DNA of 64,000 nucleotides from Methanomassiliicoccaceae archaeon (GCA_963728405.1 CAVSJV010000005.1:32001-96000); one strand, 5' to 3'. Shown: positions 18,829 through 56,748, counted from the first letter of the stretch. Notes: generated from the letters alone by a model not told the origin. Numbers and translations: made by a program.

Positions 18829-19719
18829 TCAGTATGCTAGGCCGTTGGCCTGGCAGGCCGAAATGACCGTGTTCTTCATGAGCATCACGATGGTCATGGG
18901 ACCGACTCCACCAGGGACGGGGGTGATGGCCGAGGCTTTTTCCTTGACCGCCTCGAAGTCCACGTCCCCTACCCAGCGGTAGCCCTTCTTGGCGGCAGGA
19001 TCGTCCACCCGGTTGGTTCCCACGTCGATCACTACTGCTCCGGGCTTGATCATGTCCGCGGTGATGAACTTCGGAGAACCTATGGCCGCGACCACAATAT
19101 CGGCCATCCGAGTGATGGCCGCCAGGTCCTTGGTCCGCGAATGGCAGACCGTGACCGTGGCGTTGGCGCCCTTCTTCTTCTGCATGAGGATGGCCGCCAC
19201 CGGCTTGCCGACGATGTTGCTGCGGCCGACGATGACGACGTGCTTTCCGTCCGGGTCGTTACCCGAGCGGACCAGCATCTCCTGTATGCCATGGGGGGTC
19301 GCTGGAAGGAACATGGGGTCGCCGATGAGCATCCGCCCCACGTTCATGGGGTGGAAGCCGTCAGCGTCCTTGGCCGGGTCGATGCGCACCAGCACCTTGT
19401 TCTCGTCGATGTGCTTGGGGAGCGGCAGCTGAACAAGGAAGCCGTGGATGCGGGGATCGGCGTTCAGCTCATCGACCACCGATAACAACCTCTCCTCCGT
19501 GGTGTCGATCGGCAACAGGATGGTCCTCGAGTAAAGGCCCAGCTCCTCGCAGGCCTTGCCTTTGTTGCGCACGTACTGCTGGGATGCTGGATCCTCGCCC
19601 ACCAGCACCACTGCCAGACCGGGAGTGATGCCCTTGCTCTTAAGCTCGGCGATCTTGACCCTGAGCTCTTGTCTTATCTGTTCGGCGACCTCGGGACCGC
19701 TGATGACCTTGGCGACCAT
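18829..19719 (-). CDS. folD: Methylene-THF dehydrogenase/cyclohydrolase
   Basis: YVRNK, VQLPLP, KDADGFHP, GRSNIVGKP, TPVPGGVGPMT. Confidence 0.97.
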   Translation of the reverse strand: MVAKVISGPEVAEQIRQELRVKIAELKSKGITPGLAVVLVGEDPASQQYVRNKGKACEELGLYSRTILLPIDTTEERLLSVVDELNADPRIHGFLVQLPLPKHIDENKVLVRIDPAKDADGFHPMNVGRMLIGDPMFLPATPHGIQEMLVRSGNDPDGKHVVIVGRSNIVGKPVAAILMQKKKGANATVTVCHSRTKDLAAITRMADIVVAAIGSPKFITADMIKPGAVVIDVGTNRVDDPAAKKGYRWVGDVDFEAVKEKASAITPVPGGVGPMTIVMLMKNTVISACQANGLAY

Positions 19720-19879
19720 GTTCAGAACCGTCCGGGAGTAGTGGTGAAAAGGGATTTAACATTGCCCTCGGCATCTTTTTATCACTCGTTACATGGATTC
19801 TGTTCTCGGGGAATTTGGAATGGCCAATTATCGTCATTGCGGATAGGTCATCGAGGCGAACGCGAACTTCTGCCCATTC

Positions 19880-20287
19880 CCCCTTCGGCCATCATGTATG
19901 TCATGGTCGTGGGATTCGATTCGGGGCAGACCTCTTCCGCCGGCCTGAGCGCCGAGGAGACCCCCGGAGATGTGCGGACCATAACGGTGTAGGGGGTGAG
20001 CAACGAGGCAGGGCTTACCAATGTCTGGATCGAGCTTCAATCGCCCGGGAAGGGAGTGGCATGAAAGCGGGGTCGGCCTATCGTCGACGACCGATAGCTC
20101 CCAGGCAGGCTCCGCTCACTGCTGGATCACCTACCACGACCGGGACGGTGTGGGATGCTCATTACGGACGATTGGATGGCCGTGGCCTCAGTGAGCGGAC
20201 CTCTGGGCGATGGCCCTTGCCCCATAGGATCTGAGGCATCTGCCGACCGGAGGGACCATCGCCCGCATCGATGCGAACCTACTCTAG
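19880..20287 (+). pseudogene. Degraded archaeal type IV pilin-like gene
   Basis: Fragments AIMYVMVVGF (pilin N-terminal helix end), WITYHDRDG, LRHLPTGGTIARIDANLL* in shifting frames with internal stops; signal peptide missing. Confidence 0.5.
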
Positions 20288-20335
20288 GTCCACGAACTGT
20301 TTTTTAGTGGATTTGCCTTTCCAAGAGGGAGTAGA

Positions 20336-22020
20336 ATGAAGGCTGACATCGAGATCGCTCAGGACGCCGTGATGCAACCCATCGAGATCGTGGCTGAGAA
20401 GATAGGGTTATCCAGGGACGACCTCGAACCGCACGGCCGCTACATGGCCAAGGTCCCTCTAGAGGTGCTGCGCCGCTTCGACCGCCGACCGGACGGCAAG
20501 CTCGTGCTGGTCACAGCGATCACCGCTACCAAGGCCGGGGAAGGGAAAACGGTCACTTCCATCGGACTGATGCAAGCCTTGGGAAAACTGGGCGTCAAGG
20601 TCATGGGCGCGTTGCGGGAGCCTTCCATGGGCCCAGTGTTCGGGCTGAAAGGCGGCGCCACCGGCGGAGGCCTCTCCCAGGTCTACCCGATGTGGGACAT
20701 CGACCTCCACTTCACCGGTGATATCCACGCGGTAGGCTCGGCCCATAATCTGCTCTCAGCGATGGTGGAGAACCATCTCACCAAGGGGAACGATCTGAAC
20801 ATCGATCCCACTCGAGTGGTGTGGAAGAAAGCAATGGACATGAACTGCCGCGAGCTCCGGGAGATCGTCGTCGGCCTAGGGGGAAGGAGTGTGGGTGGAG
20901 TGCCGCACGAGAGCGGCTTCGTCATCACCGCGGCCTCCGAGATCAGTGCCATCCTGGCGCTGGCCACGTCGATCGAGGACCTCCGCCACCGACTGGAACG
21001 GATGGTAGTGGCCTACGATATGCAAGGGAATCCCGTGCGGGCCGGCCAGATCCGATGCGTTGGGGCCATGGTGATGCTGCTGAAGGACGCCGTCAAGCCC
21101 AACCTGGTCCAGACCCTAGAGGGCCAACCGGTCTTCGTTCACGGCTTCCCGTTCGCCAACATCGCCCACGGCAACAACAGCCTGCTCGCTACCAAGTATG
21201 CGCTGAAGATGGCCGACGTGGTGGTGACCGAGGGCGGGTTCGCCGCTGACCTGGGGGCCGAAAAGTTCTTTGACATCGTCTGCCGCCAGGCTGGGTTCAA
21301 GCCCAGCTGTGCGGTGATCGTGGCGTCCATCCGGGCGCTCAAGATGCACGGCGGGGCCTGTCTCCAGGACGCCCTGGACTGCGAGCGGCCTAACATCGAA
21401 GCGCTCCAAAAGGGGTTCTCCAATCTGGACAAGCACATCGAGAACTGTCCGCAAGTACGGCGTCCCGGTGGTGGTGGCGCTCAATCGCTTCCCGACCGAC
21501 ACTCCGCAGGAGATCGAGGCGGTCAGGAGGCACTGTGCGCAGCTGCAGGTCCCCAGCGCCCTTTCCGACGTGTTCGCCCAGGGTGGTGAGGGAGGACGGC
21601 AACTGGCCGAACAGGTACAGCATGTTCTTAACACCGAGGTGAGCCACTTCAAGCCTCTCTACGATACGGACCTGCCGATCAAAGAGAAGATCCGGATCAT
21701 CGCCACCGAGATCTACGGGGCCAAGGACAGTTCGATATATTGGCACGGCTGACCGGGACATCAGGGCGATCGAACTGGCCGGGAACAACAAGCTCCCCAT
21801 CTGCATGGCCAAGACCCAGCTGTCCATCACTGACGATCCGAAGCTCAAGGGCGCCCCCAAGGGCTGGACCCTCAATGTTAAGGAGGTACTATTGTCGGCC
21901 GGCGCGGGTTTCGTCGTCCCCTTGTGCGGCGAGATCATGCTCATTCCTGGCCTGCCGTCGGAGCCCGCCGCAGAACGGATCGACTATTCCGACGACGGGC
22001 GGTTCATCGGGCTGAGCTGA
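20336..22020 (+). CDS. fhs: Formate-tetrahydrofolate ligase (frameshifts near 21450 and 21740)
   Basis: [48 protein letters not shown]. Confidence 0.95.
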
Positions 22021-22045
22021 TCAAATCGTGTTCACGGACTGAACG

Positions 22046-23613: not shown

Positions 23614-24622
23614 ATGAAGCAGGTCCTGGTCATTGGCGGTGGGGCAGCAGGCATGGCCGCCGCCCTCGAGCTGGCCAGGAGGAACATACCTTCCACGGTT
23701 ATCGAGCGGTCCGCCATGATGGGCGGCCTGTCCAAGGAACTGGCGTGCAAGGGCGATCCCCACTGCGTACGCTGCGACGCCTGTTACCCCCATGATCTCC
23801 GGAGGGAGGCGGCCCTCGATCCATTGATAACAATGATCACTGGTGCCGAGGTCCGAAGGATCGAACACCAGAGCGACGGGATAAAGGCGCTCGTCCGCAC
23901 CCCCCATCGCGATGAGGAACTGGTGGCGGGGGCGGTGATCGTGGCCACCGGCGCTCTCCCCTACGATGCCGACAAGGATGCTCGCCTGCACCACTCTGAC
24001 TGCCCGGACGTGCTATCATCGCAGGAGGTAGAAAGGGCCCTGGTCGAGAAGGGGCACCTTGCCGTACCTTCGACCGGGATGCCGGCCAAGAACATGGCCA
24101 TCGTCCAGTGCGTCGGTTCAAGGGACTGTCCGTTGGGGAATGCCTTACTGCTCAAAGGCCTGTTGCAAGTACGCGTACAAGCTGGGGCGCCATCTTAGAG
24201 GGCTGTATCCGGAGCTGGATCTCACCTTCTTCTTCATGGACTGGAGGCCTTTGGAGGACGCCAAGAACGCTCTGGAGGAGTGGGCGTCCCAGGACGAAAA
24301 AGTAAGGGTCGTTCGTTCTCGGCCTTCGGAGGTCCTGCCCGGCGACCGGCCGGTCGTCCGCTACGCTCCGCCCGGGGATTTCGTGGTCGAGGAAGGTTTC
24401 GACCTGGTCATGCTGTCGGTGGGCCTGGTCCCCGATCCCAGCAACCTCGACCTGGCGGAGATGTTGGAGATCACGGTCGATCAGTATGGTTTCCTCATCT
24501 CGGACAAGCGTAACATCCTCATCGCCGGGACCTGCTCGGGACCGAAGGACATCCGGGAGAGCGTGGAGGAAGGTGTGACCGCAGCGGGTCTGGCCGCCCG
24601 GGTCCTGGAGGCGGGACGATGA
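23614..24622 (+). CDS. hdrA: Compact HdrA-like flavoprotein (frameshift near 24130)
   Basis: VIGGGAAG FAD motif, CVRCDAC, GAVIVATG, IVQCVGSRD...YCSKACC, GPKDIRESV. Confidence 0.85.
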
Positions 24623-25719
24623 TCGGCCCCACCATCCTGGTAGTGGGAGGAGGACGTTCGGCCTTAGAGGCGGCCAAAGAGATCGTCGCCCAGCGCGGCA
24701 GGGCCGTTCTGGTCCGGCCGGTCGCCAAGAGGGCATGTCATCTCCGAACCCCCAGCGGCATTGAGACCCTCGACTCTGCCGAACTGATGGGCCTGGATGG
24801 CAGCCCCGGCCGGTTCACCGCTCACCTGCGGGTCGAGGACGAATTGGTCATCGTCAACTGCGGTGCGGTGATCCTGGCCGATGAGGCCCCATCCTCGAAC
24901 GAGGGGGCCCCGGGGGCGATGGGGCTCGATGAGGCCTTGGCGGGGTCGCTCCCCGAGCATGCGAAGAGCATGGCGATCGTGCTGGGTGCGTCCGCTCCCC
25001 GCGCGGCGTACCGGCGTTCCGTGGAGCTTGCGCTCCAATCGATCTCCCGCTCCGACCGTCCCAAGGTAACGCTGTTCGTCAAGGATATGAAGATCTATGG
25101 CCGGGACGAGATCGCCTACGCCGAGGCCCAGAGGCAAGGTGTCAGGGTCGTGTGGAGCGAGCATACTCCGGTGCTTGCCTATGGCGGCCGGACGTCGGTG
25201 AAGGCCATCGATTCACCTTCAGGTATAGAGATAAACTGTGAGCCCGATCTCCTAGTCGTCGAGCTGGGTCTTCCCGGTCCGCTCAGTTCATCCATCGGCC
25301 GAGCCGCCGGCGTACTGGGGTCGGGCAGGGGCAACATCAGCATGGGGGCCGCCAGCTCCCTGCGGGAGGGCGTTTTCCTGTGCGGCCCGGATGCATCCGA
25401 GCTCCTGGACGATGAGCTGATGATCGGAGCGAGGGCGGCGGCCACCAGGGCCATGTCCGCAGCGCTGCATCCAGTGATCCGCGCTCCCCAGGCCGCCACG
25501 GTCGACCGGGACAAATGCTCCGCCTGCCTGACCTGCGTACGGTGCTGCCCCTTCCATGCGCCCCGTATCGACGATGAGGGCAAGGCCGCTATCGAAGGCG
25601 AACTATGCCAGGCCTGCGGCATATGCGTGGCCGCATGCCCCAGCCGGGCCCTCAGCCTACCATCGGACCAAGGAATGGATAACGTGCTGACATCGCTGTT
25701 CAAGGAGGCGTCCCCATGA
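24619..25719 (+). CDS. Second, degenerate HdrA-like module with C-terminal 2x[4Fe-4S]
   Basis: VVGGGRSA, GAVILA, GVFLCG, then CSACLTCVRCCP and CQACGICVAACP as at the HdrA C-terminus. Confidence 0.75.
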   Translation: MIGPTILVVGGGRSALEAAKEIVAQRGRAVLVRPVAKRACHLRTPSGIETLDSAELMGLDGSPGRFTAHLRVEDELVIVNCGAVILADEAPSSNEGAPGAMGLDEALAGSLPEHAKSMAIVLGASAPRAAYRRSVELALQSISRSDRPKVTLFVKDMKIYGRDEIAYAEAQRQGVRVVWSEHTPVLAYGGRTSVKAIDSPSGIEINCEPDLLVVELGLPGPLSSSIGRAAGVLGSGRGNISMGAASSLREGVFLCGPDASELLDDELMIGARAAATRAMSAALHPVIRAPQAATVDRDKCSACLTCVRCCPFHAPRIDDEGKAAIEGELCQACGICVAACPSRALSLPSDQGMDNVLTSLFKEASP

Positions 25720-26123
25720 CCGGACCTAGTATCGCCCTTTTTTGCTGTACCAATGCCCGTGCGGCCCTGTCACCGGCAGGCGGGGATGAGGAGCGATCGC
25801 CCGACATCTCCATCATCGAGCTACCCTGTTCCGGTCGCATTGACGAGGTAACGATCATCAAAGCATTGCGCAACGGGGCCTGGGTGGTCATGGTCGTAGG
25901 CTGCCTGGAAGGCAACTGCAAGTACGGCGCGGGCAACTACCAGGCCTGGAGGCGGGTGGAGGAAGCGCGCTCCCTGCTCCAGCAGCTGGGCGTGGACCCC
26001 CAGCGGGTCCAGATGTTCAACGTGGCCTCGAACCAGCACTCCCGCCTTCTGAATGCCATGAATGAGATGAGGGAGCGGGCGCTCAAGCTGGGACCGATCA
26101 GGATACTGGAGGGTGACCGATGA
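25716..26123 (+). CDS. mvhD: MvhD-like [2Fe-2S] subunit
   Basis: FCC, LPCSGRID, GCLEGNCKYGAGN. Confidence 0.9.
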   Translation: MTGPSIALFCCTNARAALSPAGGDEERSPDISIIELPCSGRIDEVTIIKALRNGAWVVMVVGCLEGNCKYGAGNYQAWRRVEEARSLLQQLGVDPQRVQMFNVASNQHSRLLNAMNEMRERALKLGPIRILEGDR

Positions 26124-26824: not shown

Positions 26825-27738
26825 GATCCCAAAGCAACCTGGAGAAGGTCCTCGAGGGTGGGCACTTCGCGGTGACCGCGGAGATAGGCCCCCCGAAGTC
26901 AGCCTGTGCCGAAGGGGTGAGGAAGAAGGTCCGCGCCCTGAAGGGGTGTGCCGATGCCCTCAACCTGACCGACAATCAGACCGCCATCGTCCGCCTATCG
27001 AGCTTAGCGTCCGGGGTGGCCTGCCTGCAGGAGGGCGCCGAGCCGGTCATGCAGATGACCTGCCGCGACCGCAACCGTATCGCCATGCAGTCCGATCTTC
27101 TCGGTGCGGCCGCCCTGGGGATCAAGAACGTGCTGTGCATCTCGGGGGACCACCAGGTCTTCGGCAATCAGAGGGAGGCCAAGAACGTCTACGATCTTGA
27201 CCCCATCCAGCAGCTCATGGTATTCCGCCAGATGCGCGACGAGGGCAAGGTGTGGGGTGGAGATGTCCTGGAGGAGCGTCCCATGGTGTATCTCGGGGCT
27301 GCGGCCAACCCCTTTGCTGATCCGTTCGAGTTCCGGGTGACCCGGTTGGCCAAGAAGGTCAAGGCCGGAGCGGACTTCATCCAGACCCAGGCAGTGTTCG
27401 ATCTGGACCGCTTCGAGCGATTCATGACCCTGGTGCGAGAGAGAGGGCTGGACGAGAAGGTCCACATACTCGCCGGGGTAGTGCCCCTGCGCTCGGCCAA
27501 TGCCGCGAGGTACATGAAGACCAAGGTCTCCGGAATGAGCGTACCAGATGAACTGGTGGAGCGCATGAAGGGGGCCCAGGACCCCAAGAAGGAGGGGATC
27601 CGGATCTGCGTGGAGACGATCGACCGGCTGAGATCCATCAAGGGCGTCCATGGCGTACATATCATGGCCATTGGGTGGGAGGAGGTCGTCCCCTCGATCG
27701 TGGAACAGAGCAGCCTCCTGCCCAGGTCGGAGATATGA
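26821..27738 (+). CDS. metF: 5,10-methylene-THF reductase large subunit
   Basis: TAEIGPPK, NLTDNQ, TCRDRNR, ISGDH, KKVKAGADFIQTQ; ATG at 26821. Confidence 0.94.
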   Translation: MRSQSNLEKVLEGGHFAVTAEIGPPKSACAEGVRKKVRALKGCADALNLTDNQTAIVRLSSLASGVACLQEGAEPVMQMTCRDRNRIAMQSDLLGAAALGIKNVLCISGDHQVFGNQREAKNVYDLDPIQQLMVFRQMRDEGKVWGGDVLEERPMVYLGAAANPFADPFEFRVTRLAKKVKAGADFIQTQAVFDLDRFERFMTLVRERGLDEKVHILAGVVPLRSANAARYMKTKVSGMSVPDELVERMKGAQDPKKEGIRICVETIDRLRSIKGVHGVHIMAIGWEEVVPSIVEQSSLLPRSEI

Positions 27739-27919
27739 GGCCTCCGGTAGGGGGCACCCTATCAGTACTCAGCCTATCGTAGATGGGCCGCTCTGGCGGT
27801 CCGTGAACCGCGCCTGGCGTCGTCGGGTCCTTGTTGTTTCTCTACCAGCAACAGATCCGGTTTCATTACCAGGATCCCCGCATAATTATATTTCTCCGCG
27901 TTGCCATCCCCGGTGGCCT

Positions 27920-28680
27920 ATGGATGAGAAGCGTTGCTGGTTCTGCGGTCGCGGTCGGCGAGAGCTGATCGAAGATCTGCCCCCGGGCTTTTGGGACGAG
28001 CAGCAGGACCTGTTCTTGGAGATCGAGGTCATCGGCAGAGTCAGTGGGGTCGACAAGGTGAGGCCGGGTGATCCCGCCCACAGCCGTCATTTCAAGCGCC
28101 ATGATGGGCCGCAGGATGAGGTACATTCGTTCGATGACCGGCGGTTCGCGGTGGTCGCCAGGAAATTCATGAAGGTAAGCGTCTGCCGGGTGTGCCGAAG
28201 CGTGGAGACCGGGCTGTCCTCCCTTTCCGACAACAGCAAGGGCACGATCCCATATCGTTCGATCTACACTCCCGGTTCAGAAGAGCTGGCAGTAGCCCGT
28301 AACTGGGAAAAGTTGCGGTCGGAGGAGAAGCTTAAGGAGGCCGAGTATCCAGACGAAGCCTACCGTGCTCTTCTGGCAATCAGAGCATTGAGCGATGGCG
28401 GACCGATATCTCTATGGGACCTCTCCCGAGAGATGAACGTGTTCAATCACCGGGCGCTGGAGCGACCCATCGGCCACCTCATAGCGCAATGTCCCGAGAT
28501 CGGGGAAATGGACCGTAAGGCCCTGATCTTGCGCCCTACCAGCCCCACAGCGGGCGACCGTCCTGATCGATGAGCTGATCGCCAAGTATGAGGCCTTCTA
28601 CGGACAACATGAAGTTCGCCCCGCTCCCCCCGCGCCACCGTCCCAACACAACGAGGTCTTGGCCCGGATCAAGAAGTTGA
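27920..28680 (+). CDS. Hypothetical protein with CxxC...CxxC zinc motif (C-terminus probably frameshifted)
   Basis: MDEKRCWFCG...CRVCR; the ORF stops at 28573 but a shifted frame continues to ~28680. Confidence 0.5.
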
Positions 28681-28815
28681 ACAATCCGACGGACAATATG
28701 CAATATTATTCAAAATGGTGACCGGGAGCTCCTTAAGGAGCTTCAGTTAGGCCCCCTGTTAGGGCCCCCTTAGGAGGGGGCCGTCGGGTTTATAAAGTTC
28801 ATTTCCGGTAATTAT

Positions 28816-28905
28816 TTACCGGTGCCTGCCACCGGAGCTGATCTTGATGTAGGTCCAGGTCGCGGCAAGGAAGACAACAGATCCTGCGAAGTATACAAAT
28901 TCCAT
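28816..28905 (-). CDS. Small membrane peptide, copy 1 (MEFVYFAGSVVFLAATWTYIKISSGGRHR)
   Basis: SD GGGGGTGA, ATG, hydrophobic helix plus basic tail; paralog at 29329-29412. Confidence 0.75.
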   Translation of the reverse strand: MEFVYFAGSVVFLAATWTYIKISSGGRHR

Positions 28906-29085
28906 CTTTTTCACCCCCTTCAACTTTCACCCCAGATGGAGGGATGAAGTTTATTTTGGACCGTTGACTATTTATATTTTTCTTATTAAATTATTCATAA
29001 GATTTTTAATCGATTTATCACATCTATGGCTGTTAAAAACGTCCCTTACTTGGCATTTGTCAGAAAATATGTATCAATTCTTATC
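28822..29085. repeat. Diverged direct repeat, copy 1 (~265 bp)
   Basis: Aligns by eye with 29333-29594 (e.g. cttgatgtaggtccag, ccttcaactttcacccc, tggcatttgtcagaaaatatgtat). Confidence 0.9.
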
Positions 29086-29328
29086 TAGCTTTTCGAATAT
29101 ATTCTAAGGTGATGCAGTGTGGTGCAATGTTCAACGGAAATCAGAGAAATTGCAGACATCGGTCCAGAGCGAACTGCCATCGAGCACCTATCGGTCTTCT
29201 CTATTAATGCCGTATGCATTCCTTTCGAAAAGGGCTTAATTCCTTAGCGAGGTTCGAGAAAAATATCGCGGTTAGGATCCCCTTTTGGGGGATCCGTAGA
29301 GTTTTAATCTCCTGACGTAGGTGCTGTT

Positions 29329-29412
29329 CTAGCGCCTGCCGGAGCTGTACTTGATGTAGGTCCAGCATGCAGCTAGGAATACAATCGATCCACTGAAGTA
29401 TATAAATTCCAC
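29329..29412 (-). CDS. Small membrane peptide, copy 2 (MEFIYFSGSIVFLAACWTYIKYSSGRR)
   Basis: SD GGAGGTGA, GTG start; synonymous and conservative changes relative to copy 1. Confidence 0.75.
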   Translation of the reverse strand: MEFIYFSGSIVFLAACWTYIKYSSGRR

Positions 29413-29594
29413 CCTTTTCACCTCCTTCAACTTTCACCCCCGAAAGGGGGATGAACTTCATTTTGGATTCTCAACCTATTTATCATTATCTAATTAGATT
29501 ATTCATAAAATTATTTAGCAGATTTTGCCCATTTATGTGGTCGAAATACGTCCCTTATTTGGCATTTGTCAGAAAATATGTATTAATTCTTATC
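29333..29594. repeat. Diverged direct repeat, copy 2
   Basis: Aligns with 28822-29085. Confidence 0.9.
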
Positions 29595-29789
29595 ATACTC
29601 GCCGGGGTGGCCTTCCAAAGCAACGTTGGAAGGGGGTTTATTGAAGAAAATCGCTCATTTTCTTCATCAATCTATCCATAACGGGCAGAGGACACGAGGA
29701 TCCAACATGGGCTGTAGGGGGCTTGCCAGAAATATATCGCCTCACAATATATTGTTATGAATGGCCAAAATATGATCAAGGACTATGTT

Positions 29790-29827
29790 AAAAAAAGGTG
29801 AAAGGAAAAGTGAGGTCCGAAGACCTC
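29790..29827 (-). terminator. Hairpin + U-tract terminator
   Basis: GAGGTC-TTCG-GACCTC followed by T-rich runs just after the stop of 29841-31867. Confidence 0.75.
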
Positions 29828-29840
29828 TTTAGGTTCGTTC

Positions 29841-31867
29841 CTACGCCTCGGTCAGGAATTCCGGGAACGCTTCCTCGGGCCATTCGAAGCTTGCGAACAC
29901 GCCGTAGAACAGCATCTGGTCGTTCTCGAACGCGAAGCAGACATCGTTGCTGTGGACGCCCACATAGTTGTTGGTGTACAGCACGGCGCTAAGGCTCAGC
30001 TCCACCGGGTAGTCCAGGATGCAGATGGTCATGGTTTCGTTGTCGTAGGCGGTGGAATCGAACTGCACGACCGCCCTATTGTCGTTACCCATGATGACCG
30101 CGGACTCGGTGTGGTAGATGGCCGTGTCGAGTTCCTGGCTGACGCACTCGTGCATGCATGAATGAGTGACCGTGGTGTGGGCAGTGACGTTGGTCCAGGT
30201 GTCCACAGTGACACGGTCATCATAGTTGTGCACGACCACCATCTGCTCATAGCAGACCTCAGTGGCGAACTCCAGCTGGGAATCCAGACCGGTGTGCTCC
30301 AGGGGATTGACCTCGTCGCAGGCATAGGTGGCCTTGGTCTCCATGGTCAGCACGCAGGGCTTCAGCGGCACATCAAGTGTCAGGTAGACGTAGACTCCCA
30401 TGACCCCAGCGTCGTCATCGTAGTTGCAGATCTGGGCATAGGCCACGTTCCTGAGGTCGCATGAGCCGAGCATGAGAGCTGAGACGTTCTCCAGGGTGAA
30501 GCTCATCGCATACGGGTAGCAGTAGCTCTCCCCGGCCTGCAGCACTGGCATGCAGGAGATGTCCACATCGATGGTGGCGACATCCACCCAGCACTCTCCG
30601 TTCCACATCTGCACGGTGTCGGTGACCATCAGACCTTCGGTCGGGCAGTCCCCGGTGTTGGTGACCTTGATGCTCCCCCAAACATTGTAGTTCCCGTCAT
30701 CCCTGATGAGGAACTGGGCAACCTCGACCGGCAGCATCTCAGTGATGCTCTCGGCAGAGCTAGCGTCCACATTGTTGACGGTCCAGCCATCGGGCAGGGC
30801 CATGCCAAGCTCGATCGCCTCGGTCCAGGATACATTGGCCGTCTTCTCGACGCACAGGGTGGTCTCGATCGGGCCGCTGTAGATGGTCACTGGGACATGG
30901 TAGGATATCGCATCGGTGTCCTCGGGAACCAGTATGGCCTGGTTGCATAGCACATATGTCATGTTCCTGGGTGCGTCGACGTTGGTCACTTTGAGGTTGA
31001 CCATGAACTCATAGTGGGTGCATGCGTCGTCCTCAAGGTTCCACGGTCCAACATCGCTCAGAGCCTCGACCTCGAACCCACAGGGTATGCTGAAGTCGTC
31101 CCTGAGGCAGGCCTTTTCATCAACGATGATGATCGTCGGGCAGTCCGGCAGGCAGAACTCTTCGCAGGCCTGTACGCCGAAGCACTCGCCATCATGGTCA
31201 ACGAAGTTCGAGATGATCACGTCGGCCACGTTGCGGTACTGCACGCCCTCGATGGGTTCGAAGACGATCTCGTACGCGTAGGCGTAGCTCTCCCCGGCCG
31301 CTAGCACGGGGTGGCAGGTGGTGTCCACTTGGAAGGTCACGTAATCAACGAACTCTCCCTCGCAGGCCATCGTCTGCACGGTGTCGCAGATGACCAGGTC
31401 CTTGGTATCGAAGCATCCGGTGTTGGTGACGATTATCTCGCCCCTGACGCCGTACACGTCGGTAACGCATGGTCCGGACCGGTCGGCTGATAGCATGTAC
31501 GAGACAACAGCGCTCTCGCCGGGCTCGATCTGGATATCATAGCCGTCGGAATCCTGGGCCTTCAGGACATCATCGTTCTCGTAGACCTCCTTGTACACCG
31601 ACCAGGTGTAGGTATCGGTCTTCTCCCAGAATCCGCTTGCGGTCTTATCAGCGCTGATCGTGGTCAACGCCGGCATTACGGTCTGGTCGTCCCCATTCAC
31701 ATTATCGTCGCCAGTCGTTGGCGTTGTACCCGGTTCGGTGTTAGTATCAGGGTTGGTGTCGCCCTGGTCCGCAGACCCGGTCGATACAGGACCCTGTGCA
31801 GCTATCACCGCTACGGCACCTATTACAACGACTAGCGCTATCGCTAGTGCGATTATTTTTGTTCCAT
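29841..31867 (-). CDS. Secreted acidic Cys-rich protein with two Ig-like repeats
   Basis: Probable start ATG GAA CAA AAA with an A-run slip into KIIALAIALVVVIGAVAVIAA signal/anchor; repeats VTNTG..T.DL.V.DTVQ..PVL.AGESY.Y.Y...RNVA. Confidence 0.75.
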
Positions 31868-32023
31868 TCTTCGTATTGAACCCCCCAAATAGGTTTCTAG
31901 AAATTCTTTGGGTGCCAATATTTTATATATCTTTCTATTAATCATAGATAATAATATCATTCAAGATAACAATGTGCAACAGTAGTGCCAGATGCAATGT
32001 TATACAACAAAGATCACTGTTAT

Positions 32024-32787
32024 TTATTGGCGACACAGGTCTTCGTACTCGCACCATTTGCACAGCGGTCCGCGATCGCAAGGAAAATCGGTAACGGACT
32101 CTATCCTCTCTATCAGGGAGGAGGTCTTCTCCTGCAGGATGGTCAATTCCTCGGGGGTTCGGGAGGATGTGAACTGCTTATCATGTGCCAGATAATGCCA
32201 GATCAGGCGGACCTCCCGCGCATCGGGGAAGTTCTGCCGGACACCGATCTCGTAGAGGGCCAGTTGACGGTCCTGGCGGAGTTGCTGGGCAGAAGGGCTT
32301 CGCTGCCCTGTTTTATAATCGTGGATCTCGTAGACGCCGTCGGCCCGGCAGGTCAGCCGATCGATATAGCCAATGAACTCATGCTCCCGTATCCCGTGGA
32401 CCTTGAACCTGAGCTCATGCTCCAGCCCAACGGTCCTTCCCTGGTTGAAGGGATGATTGCGGCGATGATAGGCCGTCAGGCCGATGCCCGCCCTCATCAG
32501 ATGGTCGGAAGGGGACATATCTTTCTTGATCACGACCACTGAGCTGTCGTACTTCTCTCGCCAGAGGGAGTGCAGATGCTCTACCAGTTCTTTAGAGCTT
32601 AGGACCCTCCCCTTCTCCGCTTCTTCGTGGAGGTGTTGAAGGGACAGGTGGACCAAAGTGCCAGTGAAGGCCTCGATGCCATGCTTCTCTTCGACCTCGA
32701 TCTTGTCGATGTACCTGAGACGATACCGGCGGGGGCATTGCTCGAAGCAGCTCAGACGGGAGTGAGAGTAAGACGTATCGAGTCCAT
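32024..32787 (-). CDS. PD-(D/E)XK nuclease, RecB/AddB/Cas4-like
   Basis: YSHSRLSCFEQCPRRY, G..VH, GYIDRL, IHDYKTG, QLALY, C-terminal C..CKWCEY..LC; frameshift just after the ATG. Confidence 0.87.
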
Positions 32788-32880
32788 TGTTTCCCTACTC
32801 TTTATCCCCATGCCCCAATTTCCGGGATGCGGAACGAAAAAGCTTTCACATATATAGTGAAGAAGCGCGCTCGCCCACGT

Positions 32881-34778: not shown

Positions 34779-34929
34779 GGTAGTTCCAAGCGTTGAGTGC
34801 GGCCACCGCATAAAAGCCTTTCCTGGCCACCCTCCTGCCGCCTATAAAATCGCAGTTCTGCTGAAGATACGCTGCAGCTGAACCCAAAGCTAATATGTCG
34901 GGGACAGGATGGAAACGTCGGAGATCTGA

Positions 34930-42086: not shown

Positions 42087-42119
42087 CCTTTAAATAACGA
42101 GAGGGGGTTTTTGACCACT

Positions 42120-45830: not shown

Positions 45831-46853
45831 GTGGCCTGGAACTGCGCGCCCAGCTGCATAGGTTCGTTACCGCACACCGACCCAGCCAGGGCAGTGGACT
45901 TCGTACTAGATAAGCTCAAGATTATTCCCTTCTGGCCCCAGCTGCCCCGGACGGGGTTCCGGGAGAACATGTACATACAGTTCGCACACTATCTGCCCGG
46001 GGTGAAGGTGGATGAGGTCAAGAAGAGAGTGCATGTGGACCTCACCAACTACGATCCGGAGGACATCTACACCAAGATCCTGGCGGACGATGTCGATGCG
46101 TTCTCACTTCCCAAGGAGAACTTCTCAGGCTTTTACGAGTTCATGTCCCGGGAGATGCCATCCACCGTCCAGGCGGTCAAGGGACAGATCACTGGTCCCG
46201 TATCCCTCGGTCTCCAGATGACCGATCAGGACGACAAGCCGATTATCTATGACGAGGCCTATTCGGAGATCGTCCGTAAGAACCTCAATCTTATGGCCCG
46301 TTGGCAGGAGCGAGAGCTGCGCAAGAAATGCCCACAGACCATCATGTTCATTGACGAGCCTTACCTCTCGATCATCGGCACGCCGTTCGCCTCGGTATCC
46401 CAAGCGGACGTGATCAAGTGGATCGACGAGGTCACCTTCGGGCTGGAAGGTAAGAAGGGCATACACTGCTGTGCCAACACCGACTGGCCGTTCGTCATGA
46501 GCATGGACATCGATGTACTCTCGTTCGACGCGTATGATTACGGTTACACGATCGCCCTTTATCCCGCTGAGGTGGAAAAGTTTCTGAAGAAGGGCGGTTG
46601 CCTAGCCTGGGGGATCGTTCCCAACAATGAAGAGACGGTAAGGAAGGAGAATGCCTCCTCGATGGTCAAGCACGTCGAGAAGCTCTTCCATTCCCTGGAG
46701 GAGAAGGGCATCGAGCAGGAACTGCTGCTGAAACAATCCATCTTCACGCCCCAATGCGGCCTCAGCGGTCTGGACGAGACGGCTAGTGCCAACGCCATGG
46801 ACCTCCTATTGGGCATCTCGAAAGAACTAAGGACGCGCCACTCGCTGGTATAG
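45831..46853 (+). CDS. Folate-independent core methionine synthase (MesB-like)
   Basis: IGSLPH, PFWPQLP, KGQITGP, FIDEP, HCC, WGIVP, TPQCGL; located among acs genes. Confidence 0.8.
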   Translation: MAWNCAPSCIGSLPHTDPARAVDFVLDKLKIIPFWPQLPRTGFRENMYIQFAHYLPGVKVDEVKKRVHVDLTNYDPEDIYTKILADDVDAFSLPKENFSGFYEFMSREMPSTVQAVKGQITGPVSLGLQMTDQDDKPIIYDEAYSEIVRKNLNLMARWQERELRKKCPQTIMFIDEPYLSIIGTPFASVSQADVIKWIDEVTFGLEGKKGIHCCANTDWPFVMSMDIDVLSFDAYDYGYTIALYPAEVEKFLKKGGCLAWGIVPNNEETVRKENASSMVKHVEKLFHSLEEKGIEQELLLKQSIFTPQCGLSGLDETASANAMDLLLGISKELRTRHSLV

Positions 46854-46856
46854 GCC

Positions 46857-47651: not shown

Positions 47652-48974
47652 TCACAGCGTCTTGAGCAGCTTCGGTATGCCCGACGATTCCCTGGGGCCC
47701 ACGACGACCTTCAGGCCGGTCAGCTCTTGGAGCTTGCCGGACATGCGAGAGAGCATCCCCGGGATGATCACGATACCGCGTTTGCTCTTCTCCAGCGCCC
47801 CGCTGGAGCGTAGCGCCTCCGCGACGCTGTCGGCGGTCATCTTACCGGCGGCGAACGCGGTCATGACCGATAGCCCCTCGGTATCGACAACCAGTAGCCA
47901 GGCGGGGACCTTCGACTTCTCGATGTCCGCGGCCACGGTGAAATAGGTCAGCGAGAAGTTGGTGGTGAACAGCACCGGAGCGTCCGCCCCAGGGTTATTG
48001 ATGGGGTACAGGCCCGACTTCACCTGGATAGGTACCTGCGGATCGGTGTAGATGTTCTGGCGGAGCACGAACAGCGGTATGGCCTGGGCCGGGTCCAGAT
48101 CATCCAACAGCACGATGCTGCCGTACTTCATGGTCGACACCAGCGCGGTGAGCATCACTTGCGCGTTCCCGCAGGTGTTGGTGATTATCGGGTACCCTAA
48201 TCCGCGGAAGGTCTTCTTGACCGCGTTCTTGCGGACGATGGTGTTCCTTTCCACCGTCTGCTGCAGGCCGGAGGGCATGAGGTCCAATACAATGTCCTCG
48301 ACGCCGGCGGCCTTCACTTTCTCCACCAGGTCGGCGAGGCCGTTGAGATCGTCATGCCTCACCGCCAGCGGGTATCTCAACTCCTTGGCCGCCGCGGCCA
48401 TTTGCTCGATATTTGAAGCGGTGGCGGCGTAGATGAGCGGCCGGTTAAGGCTGCCCCCGGATGCAGCGGCCCTGATCGTCGCTGCGTTATCGGTCATAAG
48501 CACCAGAGGCAGACGGGAAGCGTGCGATACCTTCGCCACCATCGACGCGAACTTCGCCGGGTCCTTTGAATCGTTGCGCACCCCCAGCAGGTCCAGCGCT
48601 AGGGTCTGGCCGACCCGCTCGAACCGAAGCTCTTCGGCCTTCCGGAGCTTGGAGGCGACCTCCTGCTCATTGGCGGTATCGGAGATGACCAGGGCGTACC
48701 GGGTCGGATGGAAGAACTTCTTCTCATGGCGGTACAGCTCGGTCTCGTCCCCCAGCTCTATCTTGGCCTCGCCGCTGCCGATGGTGACCAGCCTTATGGG
48801 CGGGGCGGAGGAAGCCTCCAGCTTAGCCTTGGCCTCGTCCGTCACGTACGGGCAGTCGGCCAGCTTGGCCTTCTGATTGGCGAGCTGCATGGCGAAGGCC
48901 AGGCAGGTGGGGAAGTTGCACTTCCCGCAGTTCTTCTTCGGAAGGAACTTGAAGATCTCGATGGCCGTCGGCAT
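47652..48974 (-). CDS. acsC: Corrinoid Fe-S protein large subunit
   Basis: LPKKNCGKCNFPTCLAFA, YRHEK, RQNIYTDPQ, TTNFSLTY, SVMTAFAAGK. Confidence 0.95.
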   Translation of the reverse strand: MPTAIEIFKFLPKKNCGKCNFPTCLAFAMQLANQKAKLADCPYVTDEAKAKLEASSAPPIRLVTIGSGEAKIELGDETELYRHEKKFFHPTRYALVISDTANEQEVASKLRKAEELRFERVGQTLALDLLGVRNDSKDPAKFASMVAKVSHASRLPLVLMTDNAATIRAAASGGSLNRPLIYAATASNIEQMAAAAKELRYPLAVRHDDLNGLADLVEKVKAAGVEDIVLDLMPSGLQQTVERNTIVRKNAVKKTFRGLGYPIITNTCGNAQVMLTALVSTMKYGSIVLLDDLDPAQAIPLFVLRQNIYTDPQVPIQVKSGLYPINNPGADAPVLFTTNFSLTYFTVAADIEKSKVPAWLLVVDTEGLSVMTAFAAGKMTADSVAEALRSSGALEKSKRGIVIIPGMLSRMSGKLQELTGLKVVVGPRESSGIPKLLKTL

Positions 48975-49925
48975 TTACTTACCTCCGCGCAGTTCGGTGA
49001 TGGCGCCCTGAAGTATCGCTGCCGAACGCGGGCTGCGGACGATGAGGATGTCTGCGCCGGACATCAACGCGGCCAGTCCGGTCGTCGCTTCCCACCAGGT
49101 TCCCCGGTCCTCGACCTCTCCCCAATGGGAATTCTCTTCAGTAGCCTCGCGCGCCTCCCAGGACAGAGTGACATCGCATAGCATCGGCGCCTGGAGCATG
49201 CGGTCGCCCATCAGGGCGGCGATACGGATCCTCTCGTTCACCGAGTAGGAGTACTCGAGGCCCATGCCCAGCCCGGCCATCAAAGGGTCCATGAGCACAT
49301 TGTCGAGCTTCACGCCGAAATCGGCCAGCAAGATGTTCATTTGCTTGGCTAGATTGATGTCCAGGTTGGAGAACGCGATGAGAGCGTGACGGTTCGACAT
49401 CGTCGCGGCGGAGATGGTCTTGTAGGCCTGTTCCTCGGCCTGTCCGAGCAGAACGCGCTCCTTGGCGCAGGCGTTGCTCACGGCCTCCATGGTCCTAGCA
49501 TCCTTCTCCTCGTGTCCGCAACCGTAGACGATCACCGGGACCTTGACCGTGGCCAATAGCTTCAGCACGGTCTGGGCCGCTTCCTCTGCAGGGGCATCCT
49601 TGCCCTCGGGATTAGTGGACTGGAGCTTCAGGCAAACGAGGTCCGCCTTGAAATCCACGACCCACCGCCGAGCCCACTCGGCCGGATCCTTTACGGAATC
49701 GCCGAAGGAACGGACCGCCAGCTCGGTCAGATTGTCCGTGACATCGATAACCTCGCCGGCCAGGAGCTGGCGGTTTCCCAGTCCCTCGTACGACAGGAAG
49801 GGCATGCCCGCCTCTCCGCCGACCAGGACCGGGGAGCGACTCCCGCCCTCAGCCGGGGACGCGCCTAGCGTCACGGTGCCAATCTTTCCTGACCACTTCT
49901 CCTTGGGGACCGGTACTTCGACCAT
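48975..49925 (-). CDS. acsD: Corrinoid Fe-S protein small subunit
   Basis: VGGE.GMPF, DINLAKQ.N, MDP, GLEYSYS..ERIR.AAL.GD. Confidence 0.93.
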   Translation of the reverse strand: MVEVPVPKEKWSGKIGTVTLGASPAEGGSRSPVLVGGEAGMPFLSYEGLGNRQLLAGEVIDVTDNLTELAVRSFGDSVKDPAEWARRWVVDFKADLVCLKLQSTNPEGKDAPAEEAAQTVLKLLATVKVPVIVYGCGHEEKDARTMEAVSNACAKERVLLGQAEEQAYKTISAATMSNRHALIAFSNLDINLAKQMNILLADFGVKLDNVLMDPLMAGLGMGLEYSYSVNERIRIAALMGDRMLQAPMLCDVTLSWEAREATEENSHWGEVEDRGTWWEATTGLAALMSGADILIVRSPRSAAILQGAITELRGGK

Positions 49926-49930
49926 AGGGA

Positions 49931-52088
49931 TCACTCTACGACAGCAGAGGCGGCATCTTCATGAGCGGGGTGATCGACCTTTACCATCCACTCCACGAGG
50001 CCATCGGCCTCGGTGGTGACGGTCTCGTCGGCGATCTTGTCCACGAAGTTCGGCTCTCCGAGCTCCTCGGCCCTCCGCTGCAATGAGGAGCGCATCGCTT
50101 CCTTTAGCTCTTTGGGCATCCACGCTATGCGCAGGAACCCGCCATCAGCGGGGATGAACTTCCGACTGGTAATATACTTTCTTCCCACACCGATGAACCC
50201 GGGGGTCTGCTTGCCGCCGCCCACCGAGCCGGCCAGGGTGGAGAACTTCATGCCGATGGGGGTCATGCCCGGATACTCCCGGTTCACAATGATGACGGCC
50301 TGCATGTCGGCGGTCATTCCGACGATAACCTCGAAGCACCCGCAGGAGGTCATGGGGTCCTCCATCATGGTGTAGGCGTTGAACCGCTCGAGCTTGTGGT
50401 GAGTACCTTCGAAAACGGCCTCGTTGACGCCCTGCCATTGGCCCTTGACCTCATCGATGCACTTCCCCTTGATAATGCTCTGGTTAGGTCCATGGGGGTC
50501 GATTTCGTACGAGGCCCGGGCATCTAACCAGTTCACTGCTCCGCACAGTCCCAGGCGCTCGGGGGTTATTACGCAGATGTGATCTGGTGCAAAAGACTGA
50601 CAGAGTAAACAACTATACGCCGTGTCCACACTCTCGTCCGTCAGACCGGCCAGGCGGGCATCGCGCTGCGTATAGATGTCCAACGCTTCCGGTAACCGTT
50701 TTCTGATCTCCTCCTCGTCGGTTATGATGGTGACCTGGACGCGGGAGACGATGTTGCCGAACTCCTCCTTGAGCTTGGTGATGATGATGTCCCCTAAGTG
50801 CTTGAACCGGAGACCAGCATGAACGGACGCTTTGCTCAACCGGATCCACAGGATGTTCCTCTGGCCGGTATGCCACGCTCCCTCGGCGTAGTTGACGAAG
50901 AGGTGGATCCTTCGCTCCAGCACTCCTTCGAAGTCCTCCTGCATCTTCTTGCCGTAGACGTCCACCAGGATTGCGAGGGAGGTCTTCCCTCCTTCCGGGA
51001 GCGAGTCCACGTCCTTGCCGATAACGGTGATGAGGCCGTCCTTGACCTCGTCCTCGGGCCGAAGCCTTAGTAGCTCGAAAGTGGTGGTCTTGGCCGCGCC
51101 ACCCGCCTCGACATAGGTGTCCGGACGGCGGATGACCTCGCCTTCGAAAGCGGGGCCATAGGCCACCGGTATGTCGACCGGAGCGAGGCGGACCTTGATA
51201 CCCCGGGCCTCCAGGCCGATCTGGACCATCTTTTCCGGTTCCTTGACGTAGATGAGCTTCTCCGGTACGCCCTCTACCGGCTGGTCGGTAATGATCGATG
51301 CACCGTTGAGGATCGCGGCCAGCGCCGCGCCCGCCAGAACCGGATCGATCGGTCCGAACGCCAGGACGAGCACCTTGGGCCTCTTGGCCAGGTAGGCGGC
51401 GATGCCTTCGCGATCGCCCCTCTGCACGCCGCCGAACGATAGCGCTGCGCGAATGGCAAAGTTCAACGCATGAACGATCTGGGTAGACATTCCGACCGGG
51501 TACAGGCGGAACCTTTCCCCCATCTGCACGCCCTTGGAACGCAACTGCTCGATGACCTCGCCGGAGGCGATGATCAGCAGCCCCTTCGCTTGCAGGTCCC
51601 GGACGATCTTGACCAGCGCCTCCGGATCGTTGCTCTTTCCGGCAAGAACGGCCGCCCCAGGGATGGTATCGTCGACAAACGCGACGCCCAGCTCACGGAT
51701 CACCTTGTCGGGCACGAAGCCCATGAAGTCCGTCCCCTCATAGGGGCGCTGGTTCTCCACGTACTTCAACGCCTCGATGACCTCGGCTGGCGATCATGGT
51801 CGCCTCGCCGGCGATCAACGCGTTCCCTATGGTCGGCTCGCTACCCAGCTTCTCACGCTGGGTGCGCAATATCGGGCCGAGCTGTCCGAGGCTCCTGGCC
51901 TCCCGGCCGTCCCAGGCAAAGATCGCCGGCAGCTCGTAGCAAGTCTCCGGGTACTCCACCGCTCGGTCGGCTCCGAGTCGGGACAGCGCATCCTGTAATG
52001 CCTCATCGGCCAGGTCCAGGGCGATATTGGCGCCTTGTATGGCCAGTGCGAACACATCTTGGTTGGAGATGGTATGGTCGGAACTCAA
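49931..52088 (-). CDS. acsB: Acetyl-CoA synthase, long bacterial-type (frameshift near 51780)
   Basis: N-terminal YPETCYELP domain; YSCLLCQSFAPDHIC...PERLGLCGA, PMTSCGCFE; ~720 codons in total. Confidence 0.93.
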
Positions 52089-52262
52089 ATGGAACGCCTC
52101 CCGGGCACGGGTCAAAGGGATATAACCTCATCACTTTAGAGATTATTAACCCAATGTGCTTCTTGCTAGCTGGGGGCCATGAATATTGCCACTAGCCTGA
52201 TTTCCAGTGCTTGGCGGTACTTCAAAGCTTCGCCTGAGCCGTCGGTCCTGCCAATGCAGGGC

Positions 52263-55541: not shown

Positions 55542-55545
55542 GGTG

Positions 55546-56376
55546 ATGCACGAGACGTGGGCCTTGACCGTGAGAGAGCTGAAACACTGGTATAGGGTCA
55601 AGATCCAGATCTTCATGACCCTCATCCAGCCGATCGTCTGGCTGGGGCTGTTCGGTCAAGCGTTCAACCTCGGCGCGGTGTTCGCCGGCCCAGGCGTACC
55701 GGCGGGAGCGTTCCAACAGGCGTTCGCCGGTGCACCGGACTACTTCTCGTTCATGTCGGTCGGCATGCTCGCGGTGATAACGCTGTTCGCTTGCATGTTC
55801 TCCGGCATGAGCATCGTGTGGGACCGGCGGTTCGGATTCCTGAACAAGCTCAAGGTGGCGCCCATACCGAGGGGCGTGGTGCCGGTATCGAGGATACTTG
55901 CTACGGTCGTCCGGGCCATGATACAGGTGGCCATCGTGCTGATCATCGCTGCAGCGTTCGTCTATGTCCCCGGCCTCACCGGCCTTAGCGTGAAGGCGAG
56001 CTTCAGCCTGTTCGACCTGGGCGGGATGTTCCTCATCCTGTTCCTGCTGTCCCTGGGCTTCGCATCGCTGTTCACCGCGATCGCGCTGGCCGTGGAGAAC
56101 CAGGAGACCCTGTTCGGCGTGATCAACCTGCTGAACCTGCCCCTGATGTTCGCCTCCGCGGCGCTGTTCCCGTTGTTCTTAATGCCTGGTTGGCTCCAAA
56201 GCATCGCCAAGTACAACCCCCTCACCTGGGCTGCGGACGGCCTGCGGCAGTTCGCGTTCGTGGACACCAGCGCCGTTTACAGCGTGGAGTGGGACATAAT
56301 CGGGCTGGCGATCTTCTCCCTGGCCCTGGTAGGGATCAGCATCGTTGTATCGAGGAAGCTGCTGAGCAACAAGTGA
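55546..56376 (+). CDS. ABC-2 type permease
   Basis: Six TM segments, DRRFGFL..L.VAP, NPLTW. Confidence 0.92.
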   Translation: MHETWALTVRELKHWYRVKIQIFMTLIQPIVWLGLFGQAFNLGAVFAGPGVPAGAFQQAFAGAPDYFSFMSVGMLAVITLFACMFSGMSIVWDRRFGFLNKLKVAPIPRGVVPVSRILATVVRAMIQVAIVLIIAAAFVYVPGLTGLSVKASFSLFDLGGMFLILFLLSLGFASLFTAIALAVENQETLFGVINLLNLPLMFASAALFPLFLMPGWLQSIAKYNPLTWAADGLRQFAFVDTSAVYSVEWDIIGLAIFSLALVGISIVVSRKLLSNK

Positions 56377-56553
56377 GCACCAAACCCTTTCCATCCCTTT
56401 TTCTAAATAATTTCGATACCTATTTGCGCCCGCTTGCAGATAGTTCGTTCCTATCTGTCCTTAACCAGCAGCTCTCCGACCCGTAGATGGGGATACATCG
56501 CCGCGGAGCACGATGCTTTGATGTAATGGACGTTTTAGCGTTGGAACGGCCGC

Positions 56554-56748
56554 TCAATCCATCTTCTTGAAAACTATCCCGTGGCTAAGGAGGTTCGCTT
56601 CCTTGAGCACGACATTGTCGAGCACGACCTGCTCCCCGACGATATTGGTGCAGATGGCCTGGGGGCCGCGCATGACGATCCTGGTCGCATCCTTCAGGAC
56701 CTCTTTCATCGCGCCGTTCTCTTCCAAGAACACCGTCGACTCACACAT
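56554..56748 (-). CDS. cooT: CooT family nickel-binding protein
   Basis: N-terminal MCES, C-terminal NLLSH, 64 aa. Confidence 0.78.
   Translation of the reverse strand: MCESTVFLEENGAMKEVLKDATRIVMRGPQAICTNIVGEQVVLDNVVLKEANLLSHGIVFKKMD

Follow-up and report, generated by a model that had tools for sequence, protein, structure and literature searches.

The acetyl-CoA synthase and tetrahydrofolate gene neighbourhood of a Methanomassiliicoccaceae archaeon and a carbon monoxide dehydrogenase encoded at a distance from it

Background

Positions 18829 to 56748 of a 64,000-nucleotide stretch from a Methanomassiliicoccaceae archaeon (GCA_963728405.1; G000:C5:32001-96000, in the following "the window", with G000 denoting the genome under study) harbour genes of a bacterial-type tetrahydrofolate (THF) methyl branch together with those of an acetyl-CoA synthase (ACS), its corrinoid protein, and a MesB-like methionine synthase. 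The question raised by this locus is whether ACS works here without a carbon monoxide dehydrogenase (CODH), splitting acetyl-CoA for its methyl group and releasing CO, as the initial annotation of the window had proposed, or whether a CODH is encoded elsewhere. The window is part of a contig of 516 kb, and the genome comprises 2.73 Mb in 18 contigs with a completeness of 93.75 % (vs. 96-99 % in nine of ten genomes of the same genus, to which the relatives G001 and G008 used for comparison belong).

The region probably constitutes a genus-conserved operon neighbourhood of an H2-dependent methyl-reducing methanogen of the Methanomassiliicoccus type, in which a bacterial-type THF methyl branch (folD, fhs, hdrA-mvhD-metVF) is combined with an ACS/corrinoid system (acsE, RACo, cooC, acsC, acsD, acsB, cooT) and the MesB-like synthase; it is not CODH-less and would work together with the CODH CooS, and the frameshifts encountered in it would most likely be assembly errors. 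The gene set is already known biology, because the THF pathway, ACS/CODH, mtrAH, and MesB have been published for Methanomassiliicoccales, and the headline reading of a CODH-less system is refuted. The initial annotation had itself remarked that the parts are not all new; passages of PMC6147122 give the same gene set for one genome of this order.

A carbon monoxide dehydrogenase outside the window

A search of the whole genome for Prismane/CODH proteins revealed one strong place (C5:133844-135505) and one fragment of 47 amino acids (aa) on another contig. Both fall outside C5:32001-96000, such that the window itself indeed contains no CODH. The strong place corresponds to cooS, an open reading frame (ORF) of 648 aa (G000:C5:133619-135565) that matches TIGR01702 over its full length and without stops (649 bits, cut-off 478) and is preceded by its own gene for a CooC-like ATPase of 273 aa. 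It is situated on the same contig as acsB, at a distance of about 49.5 kb from it and 37.6 kb beyond the window end. Thus, the Ni-CODH catalytic subunit of a complete CODH/ACS system is present in the genome, whereas it is not adjacent to acsB. The CooS orthologues of G003 (91 %) and G001 (80 %) likewise share a contig with AcsB.

The proposal of a system without CODH that releases CO therefore fails for the genome under study, because a CODH exists elsewhere in it, which had been named beforehand as the observation that refutes the proposal. The exclusion of the CO-releasing version does not extend beyond this genome. A 3.7-kb insertion between cooC and acsC in G001 was considered as the place of a hidden CODH and rejected, as it consists of an ABC transporter and a surface protein.

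Organization and conservation of the gene neighbourhood

In family scans, every gene named for positions 18829-56748 was recovered, with strands and approximate places as implied by the initial annotation. Collinearity of the window with G001 and G008 extends from about 4 to 60 kb (nucleotide identity 65-83 %), and since it is shared with two genomes of the genus, the gene arrangement is not due to chance. Several unrelated genes are interspersed, namely those for a polysaccharide deacetylase, a PD-(D/E)XK nuclease, a Fer4_16/HEAT protein, PIN and MarR proteins, a hexapeptide transferase, an archaeal PEP carboxylase, and a SAM methyltransferase. Because these sit between the named genes, the cluster is a neighbourhood of several operons and not a single operon. 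A chimeric contig was ruled out by the composition, which is even except at 28-30 kb, and by the collinearity with the two same-genus genomes.

The assignment to a Methanomassiliicoccales-like lineage was corroborated: the nearest AcsB sequences are those of metagenome-assembled genomes (MAGs) of Methanomassiliicoccaceae and Methanomassiliicoccus (81-93 % identity), and McrA is present in the genome, which marks the organism as a methanogen.

Concerning the ACS, corrinoid-protein, and methionine-synthase genes, the following features were found (window coordinates, strand, description):

34002-34811, minus strand: acsE (methyl-THF:corrinoid methyltransferase), 269 aa; PF00809 Pterin_bind 75.1 bits
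42105-44061, plus strand: RACo (reductive activator of the corrinoid Fe-S protein); Fer2, RACo_linker, and Raco_middle (42111-43145), RACo_C_ter 319.3 bits (43108-44061)
45831-46853, plus strand: MesB-like core methionine synthase candidate, 340 aa, MetE-like; NF002119 methionine synthase, weak match of 29.7 bits
46857-47612, plus strand: cooC-like Ni-insertion ATPase, 251 aa; AAA_31, CbiA, ParA, and MinD/ParA-class matches
47652-48974, minus strand: acsC (corrinoid Fe-S protein, large subunit), 440 aa; NF003195 551.9 bits, cut-off 306
48975-49934, minus strand: acsD (corrinoid Fe-S protein, small subunit), 319 aa; NF003376 328.4 bits, cut-off 280
49931-52115, minus strand: acsB (bacterial-type acetyl-CoA synthase); NF040764 852.6 bits, cut-off 800; one +1 frameshift near 51787
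56554-56748, minus strand: cooT, 64 aa; PF10133 38 bits, cut-off 27

The bacterial type of AcsB is confirmed by the match to NF040764, a model of the bifunctional alpha/beta ACS, which extends over 49931-51769 (model positions 92-700 of 705), and by the nearest sequences outside Thermoplasmata, which are at 49-52 % (Sporomusa 51-52 %, Actinomycetota about 50 %). AcsB does not form one uninterrupted frame: it passes from frame -3 to frame -1 near 51787, leaving an open frame of 620 aa vs. 714-757 aa in 11 relatives, and its N-terminal CODH-contact domain (PF18537 CODH_A_N, 61.7 bits, 51738-52115) is situated in the other, upstream reading frame. A Cys-Gly-Cys motif, which we take to be that of the A-cluster, lies at residue 476 of the 612-aa part. 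The AcsE protein is 84 % identical to its G001 orthologue, and the cooC-like protein exhibits a P-loop and, at residue 108, a CxC motif that presumably has its customary role.

The MesB-like gene lies directly upstream of cooC and beside acsCDB, i.e., in the clustering with acsBCD that is expected for this enzyme. In passages of 10.1101/2020.04.21.054031, MesB is defined by at least 173 bits to DET0516 of Dehalococcoides mccartyi and by the zinc ligands H, C, D/E, and C. The 340-aa protein has no Pfam match, and a PDB sequence search gave chance-level matches only; it exhibits an H-C-C, D, C pattern two residues before the published Zn positions 214, 216, 235, and 311, as judged by eye and unaligned to any MesB.

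The features of the folate branch are as follows:

18829-19719, minus strand: folD (methylene-THF dehydrogenase/cyclohydrolase), 296 aa; PF02882 229.5 bits, PF00763 145.7 bits
20336-22017, plus strand: fhs (formate-THF ligase), in three reading frames; PF01268 573.5 bits
22046-22642, minus strand: DUF3786 protein, 198 aa; PF12654 131.9 bits
23605-24613 and 24619-25719, plus strand: two hdrA-like flavoprotein/ferredoxin ORFs; Pyr_redox_2, DAO, and FAD_binding_2 (23614-24198), Fer4 (24619-25719)
25716-26123, plus strand: mvhD, 135 aa; PF02662 FlpD 113.8 bits
26113-27738, plus strand: metV-metF fusion (methylene-THF reductase), 541 aa; PF02219 132.2 bits (residues 243-533), NF006396 215 bits (235-519)
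35342-36934, plus strand: purH (AICAR formyltransferase/IMP cyclohydrolase), 530 aa; PF01808 363.4 bits, PF02142 83.7 bits

Between metV-metF and acsE, an island at 27700-32800 is missing from G001 at the same position, and GC drops to 0.49 at 28-30 kb. The island includes an ORF of 655 aa (29841-31808, minus strand) that has no Pfam/NCBIfam match and a homologue of 661 aa in G008 (48 % identity), as well as the PD-(D/E)XK nuclease (32024-32656, minus strand). The following protein of 392 aa (32827-34005) directly adjoins acsE and combines Fer4_16 with HEAT repeats in an architecture like that of epoxyqueuosine reductase; it remained unaligned in G001.

Reading frame interruptions

Several genes of the neighbourhood are distributed over more than one reading frame. 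For this comparison, G001 ORFs were placed on the window; the 37 ORFs were called greedily and comprise some antisense shadows, such that neither this number nor the corresponding list from G008 represents a gene count. Nine of the 37 match in more than one frame, amounting to 13 shifts. At least nine of these are situated inside 18829-56748 (two in fhs, one in the hdrA-like part, three in the PEP carboxylase gene, and one each in RACo, in an ORF of 231 aa, and in acsB), and four outside the cluster on its left side, in three ORFs at 7.7-14.8 kb. The comparison with G008 adds multi-frame matches at 5.4-5.9 kb, at 7.0-8.1 kb, and in the DUF3786 gene, whose G008 orthologue aligns in three frames, such that both of its ends may be shifted. 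As a separate observation, the genes outside the cluster that are found in two or three frames in comparison with G001 or G008 occupy 5433-5880, 6982-8102, 9638-10197, and 14007-14822 of the window.

In fhs, the shifts lie near 21444-21469 and 21718-21728; the orthologues of G001 and G008 align in frames 2, 3, and 1, and the first frame accounts for no more than positions 2-369 of the 556 in the PF01268 model, the remainder being found in the two others. The first hdrA-like ORF is shifted near 24098-24138 (frames 1, then 2, compared to G001), and RACo near 43126 (frames 3, then 1, compared to the 635-aa protein of G001). The archaeal-type PEP carboxylase gene (PF14010, 38957-40426) runs through four frames by three +1 shifts.

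These frameshifts in fhs, in the hdrA-like part, in RACo, in acsB, and in other genes are probably assembly errors and not gene decay, because their density outside the cluster (about 0.36 per kb in some 11 kb) is similar to that inside (about 0.24 per kb in some 38 kb), and because 11 of the 13 are +1 shifts, i.e., an extra base in the window, with the direction taken from the frame order. A strong bias towards single-base insertions is typical of sequencing error. Metagenome contigs from four runs, which represent relatives mostly 88-95 % alike and did not cover the RACo site or a site at about 44.5 kb, are one base shorter at 39206, 39576, and 40013 (all in the PEP carboxylase gene) and at 51788/51789 (acsB). 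The opposite explanation, according to which the cluster is decaying and the pathway non-functional, is improbable. At least nine shifts within the cluster and the shortened open frame of AcsB would fit it, as would the position of most sites outside long homopolymers: only one listed site (40013) lies in a run of C, and simple homopolymer miscalls were accordingly rejected as the cause. Against decay stand, besides the insertion bias, the housekeeping flanks with their similar density of shifts (even more in comparison with G008) and the split pieces, which are 63-87 % identical to intact orthologues and contain no other stops; furthermore, another contig carries an acetyl-CoA synthetase homologue that is divided between frames as well.

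Further genes of one-carbon metabolism

As the initial annotation had stated for this lineage, the tetrahydromethanopterin (H4MPT) methyl branch is missing: Mch, Ftr, and Mer (PF02289, PF01913, and TIGR03555) gave no match at E <= 0.001 in the 93.75 % complete genome, whereas the controls were positive in known methanogens. In the search for McrA and for Mtr/Mer, McrA and an MtrA-MtrH pair were found and Mer was not. The genes mtrA and mtrH are adjacent on contig 17 (G000:C17:14832-16497, L031:711-2376; MtrA 166 bits, MtrH 245.6 bits). Because SHMT is present as well as the MtrAH pair, the cluster is not the sole source of one-carbon (C1) units.

The alpha subunit of formate dehydrogenase (Fdh-alpha) was not found in the 93.75 % complete genome, such that CO2 cannot be the starting point of the methyl branch. 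This leaves the methanogenic pool, external formate, or acetyl-CoA as the origin of the methyl group. Homologues of the AMP-forming acetyl-CoA synthetase are present, though below the equivalog cut-off. Concerning those at G000:C17:118787-120455 and C17:253185-254852, one is split in two frames (427 + 157 aa) and one contains a TAA within its frame.

Distribution among related genomes

Among the 24 Methanomassiliicoccaceae genomes compared (the genome under study included), AcsB is found in all 24, CooS in 15, and MtrH in seven; from the order as a whole, 28 of 30 relatives possess AcsB. The nine family genomes with AcsB and without CooS are G004, G006 (67 % complete), G007, G008, G012, G015, G016, G018, and G035. 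Completeness is 94 % or higher in eight of them, and two (G008 and G012) consist of one contig each. In five of the nine, a search for the Prismane family gave no more than Hcp-like frames (361-532 aa) or no match at all. The CODH-less state of ACS is thus real in relatives of the organism under study.

Of the 11 genomes of the genus, six possess both MtrH and CooS, one possesses CooS alone, and four possess neither; these genomes are kin and a small sample, and the co-occurrence does not constitute independent evidence. The distribution pattern of CooS and MtrH is a lead and not a result. Literature searches, which did not cover supplements, found no paper stating the pattern of AcsB, CooS, and MtrH, which may nonetheless have been published.

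In sister families of the order, a CODH directly precedes AcsB, and in G027 both form a single ORF of 1358 aa (Prismane, CODH_A_N, CdhC, and ACS_CODH_B_C; L114:1412-5488). Open frames of 1362-1382 aa likewise span CODH and ACS in G019, G026, and G030, with one internal TAA in G019. This AcsB-linked CODH is only 38-40 % identical to the CooS of the genome under study; its closest counterparts are CODH-II (726 bits) and Moorella AcsA (681 bits).

From these distributions, it might be suspected, though with considerable doubt, that the ACS of the family has lost its cognate CODH and is now free-standing. About a third of the genomes would then be CODH-less and split acetyl-CoA in the manner of Dehalococcoides, whereas the rest would be loosely paired with a Desulfovibrio vulgaris-like CooS that travels with MtrAH; the genome under study would represent the CODH-retaining state of a switching lineage. 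If the pattern of AcsB in all 24 genomes, CooS in only 15, and MtrH following CooS within the genus holds, it would provide natural pairs with and without CODH, by which two roles of ACS in a methyl-reducing methanogen, namely carbon assimilation from methyl groups and C1 supply from acetate, could be told apart. It would also show whether an ACS without CODH, as in Dehalococcoides, has an independent origin in archaea.

Two further observations concern the length and the integrity of these genes. In G025, AcsB lies in an ORF of 1024 aa (L116:1835-4909) whose first approximately 340 residues match no Pfam family, and AcsB open frames of 991-1027 aa also exist in G020, G022, and G029; they might represent a real extension or merely an upstream open frame. 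The MtrH matches of two genomes of the same genus, G009:C1:329503-330378 and G010:C23:230116-230988, each contain one in-frame TAG, which could be read through, as the order uses pyrrolysine, or could reflect a match overrunning the gene end.

Possible function and alternative explanations

Judging from the gene content, the conserved gene order, and the presence of CooS in the genome, the following course of reactions may be inferred. Methyl groups of the methanogenic pool (methyl-CoM) would reach methyl-THF through MtrAH, a link proposed in passages of PMC6147122. AcsE would transfer the methyl group from methyl-THF to the corrinoid protein, which is presumably maintained by RACo, and onward to ACS. 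CooS would form CO out of CO2 with reduced ferredoxin, and ACS would combine methyl group, CO, and CoA to acetyl-CoA for biomass. The methyl-corrinoid might also supply the MesB-like enzyme for the synthesis of methionine, and oxidation of methyl-THF by MetVF, FolD, and Fhs could provide methylene- and formyl-THF, from which thymidylate and (by PurH) purines would be made. As the steps are reversible, the cleavage direction would be possible with acetate, CooS then oxidising CO. The second option of the initial annotation, i.e., that acetyl-CoA is formed out of methyl groups and external CO, comes close to this course and departs from it in the origin of the CO, which would be made internally by CooS.

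Several points weigh against this explanation. Concerning the place of the CODH, cooS is not located next to acsB, and in its vicinity are genes for a PAS histidine kinase and a ZnuABC-type metal transporter, with no acs genes. Concerning the kind of CODH, comparison with solved structures ranks the CooS of Desulfovibrio vulgaris (716 bits) before the CODH subunit of the Clostridium autoethanogenum CODH/ACS (592 bits), CODH-II (478 bits), and Moorella AcsA (462 bits), such that CooS is closest to a monofunctional enzyme and not to AcsA. As the CODH of the sister families belongs to another group, the cognate AcsB-linked CODH (AcsA) seems to have been lost in the family, which carries a different CooS at a distance; the case of C. 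autoethanogenum shows that the group of this CooS can serve an ACS, and the CooS of the genome under study may do so. SHMT provides an alternative C1 route. Of the MesB-like synthase, the position beside cooC and acsCDB stands, whereas its membership in MesB is that of a candidate, based on the weak match and the motif pattern. Furthermore, fhs and acsB are pseudogenes if the frameshifts are real; a search for the assembly's own reads among the public runs found, in any run, at most 0.07 of the words sampled from acsB.

The main rival to the preferred reading, i.e., synthesis of acetyl-CoA with CO from CooS, is a dominant cleavage direction, in which acetate is converted to acetyl-CoA, ACS produces methyl-corrinoid (for methionine and the THF pool) and CO, and oxidation of the CO to CO2 by the distal CooS yields reduced ferredoxin. 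The acetyl-CoA synthetase homologues are compatible with it, as is the failure to find Fdh-alpha, with which the methyl branch cannot begin at CO2; the group of CooS includes monofunctional CO oxidisers, and the retention of ACS in the CooS-less relatives is sensible only for cleavage or with external CO. However, MtrAH constitutes a direct methyl supply that tracks CooS within the genus, and SHMT is already able to supply C1 units, such that a dominant cleavage is rather unlikely. Cleavage by an ACS without any CODH, with the methyl groups going to methionine and the THF pool and with release of CO as in Dehalococcoides mccartyi, is extremely improbable for the genome under study. It would accord with the window, in which no CODH is found, and with the MesB-like gene adjoining acsCDB, and it may fit the nine CooS-less relatives. 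Against it stand the full-length CooS and its CooC, which are encoded on the same contig, SHMT and MtrAH as further sources of C1 units and methyl groups, and the presence of acsE and metF, both of which D. mccartyi lacks according to passages of 10.1101/2020.04.21.054031, such that the analogy drawn with that bacterium does not hold.

The genes might instead serve energy metabolism, either by aceticlastic methanogenesis or by disproportionation of methanol to methane and formate via MtrAH and the THF branch. The gene set is that on which passages of PMC6147122 base such a proposal (mtrAH, ACS, CooS, THF pathway, and acetyl-CoA synthetase homologues); however, these passages present the proposal as hypothetical, with caveats listed by the authors, and M. 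luminyensis makes methane only from H2 plus methanol, as a passage of PMC7374477 states. This role is therefore very improbable, and the reading in which acetyl-CoA is made from methyl groups with the aid of CooS is preferred.

Comparison with known systems

The organization found here is most similar in gene content to that of a MAG from Lake Pavin (MALP), a methanogen of the same order. According to passages of PMC6147122 (Speth & Orphan 2018), this Methanomassiliicoccales MAG possesses mtrAH, acetyl-CoA synthetase, ACS/CO dehydrogenase, and a complete C1-THF pathway, the latter also being found as a whole in M. luminyensis and M. intestinalis. MALP has mtrAH without mtrB-G, and mtrA, mtrH, ACS, CODH, and the full C1-THF pathway are equally present in the genome under study, as compared by gene content. 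Despite this similarity, the latter is a separate genome, in which a distance of about 49.5 kb separates cooS from acsB and the assembly shows frameshifts in several genes. For Methanomassiliicoccales, passages of 10.1101/2020.04.21.054031 give MesB only, together with the Wood-Ljungdahl pathway, and passages of PMC10804542 note the H4F methyl branch over a set of 243 genomes of this order; neither Borrel 2014 (PMC4153887) nor Borrel 2016 (PMC4943185) deals with CODH, ACS, or folate in any passage.

To Dehalococcoides mccartyi, there is a likeness in the ACS and corrinoid protein beside a MesB-like synthase, and passages on that bacterium suggest that methionine may receive its methyl group from the corrinoid protein. 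D. mccartyi is described there as lacking CODH, MetF, and AcsE, whereas the genome under study has all three.

The AcsABCDE system of Moorella thermoacetica and the CODH/ACS of C. autoethanogenum are resembled in the CODH-contact domain of AcsB and in AcsC, AcsD, AcsE, RACo, and CooC. Unlike in these bacterial systems, acsA is not situated beside acsB, no formate dehydrogenase was found in the genome, and the host is an archaeal methanogen. The bacterial-type CODH/ACS of the order is probably treated by Adam et al. in 2018. Clusters of a MetVF-HdrA-MvhD methylene-THF reductase are known from acetogens such as Moorella and Sporomusa. Equally to these clusters, hdrA-like genes, mvhD, and metV-metF are adjacent and co-oriented in the window, whereas metV and metF are fused and the hdrA-like part consists of two ORFs.

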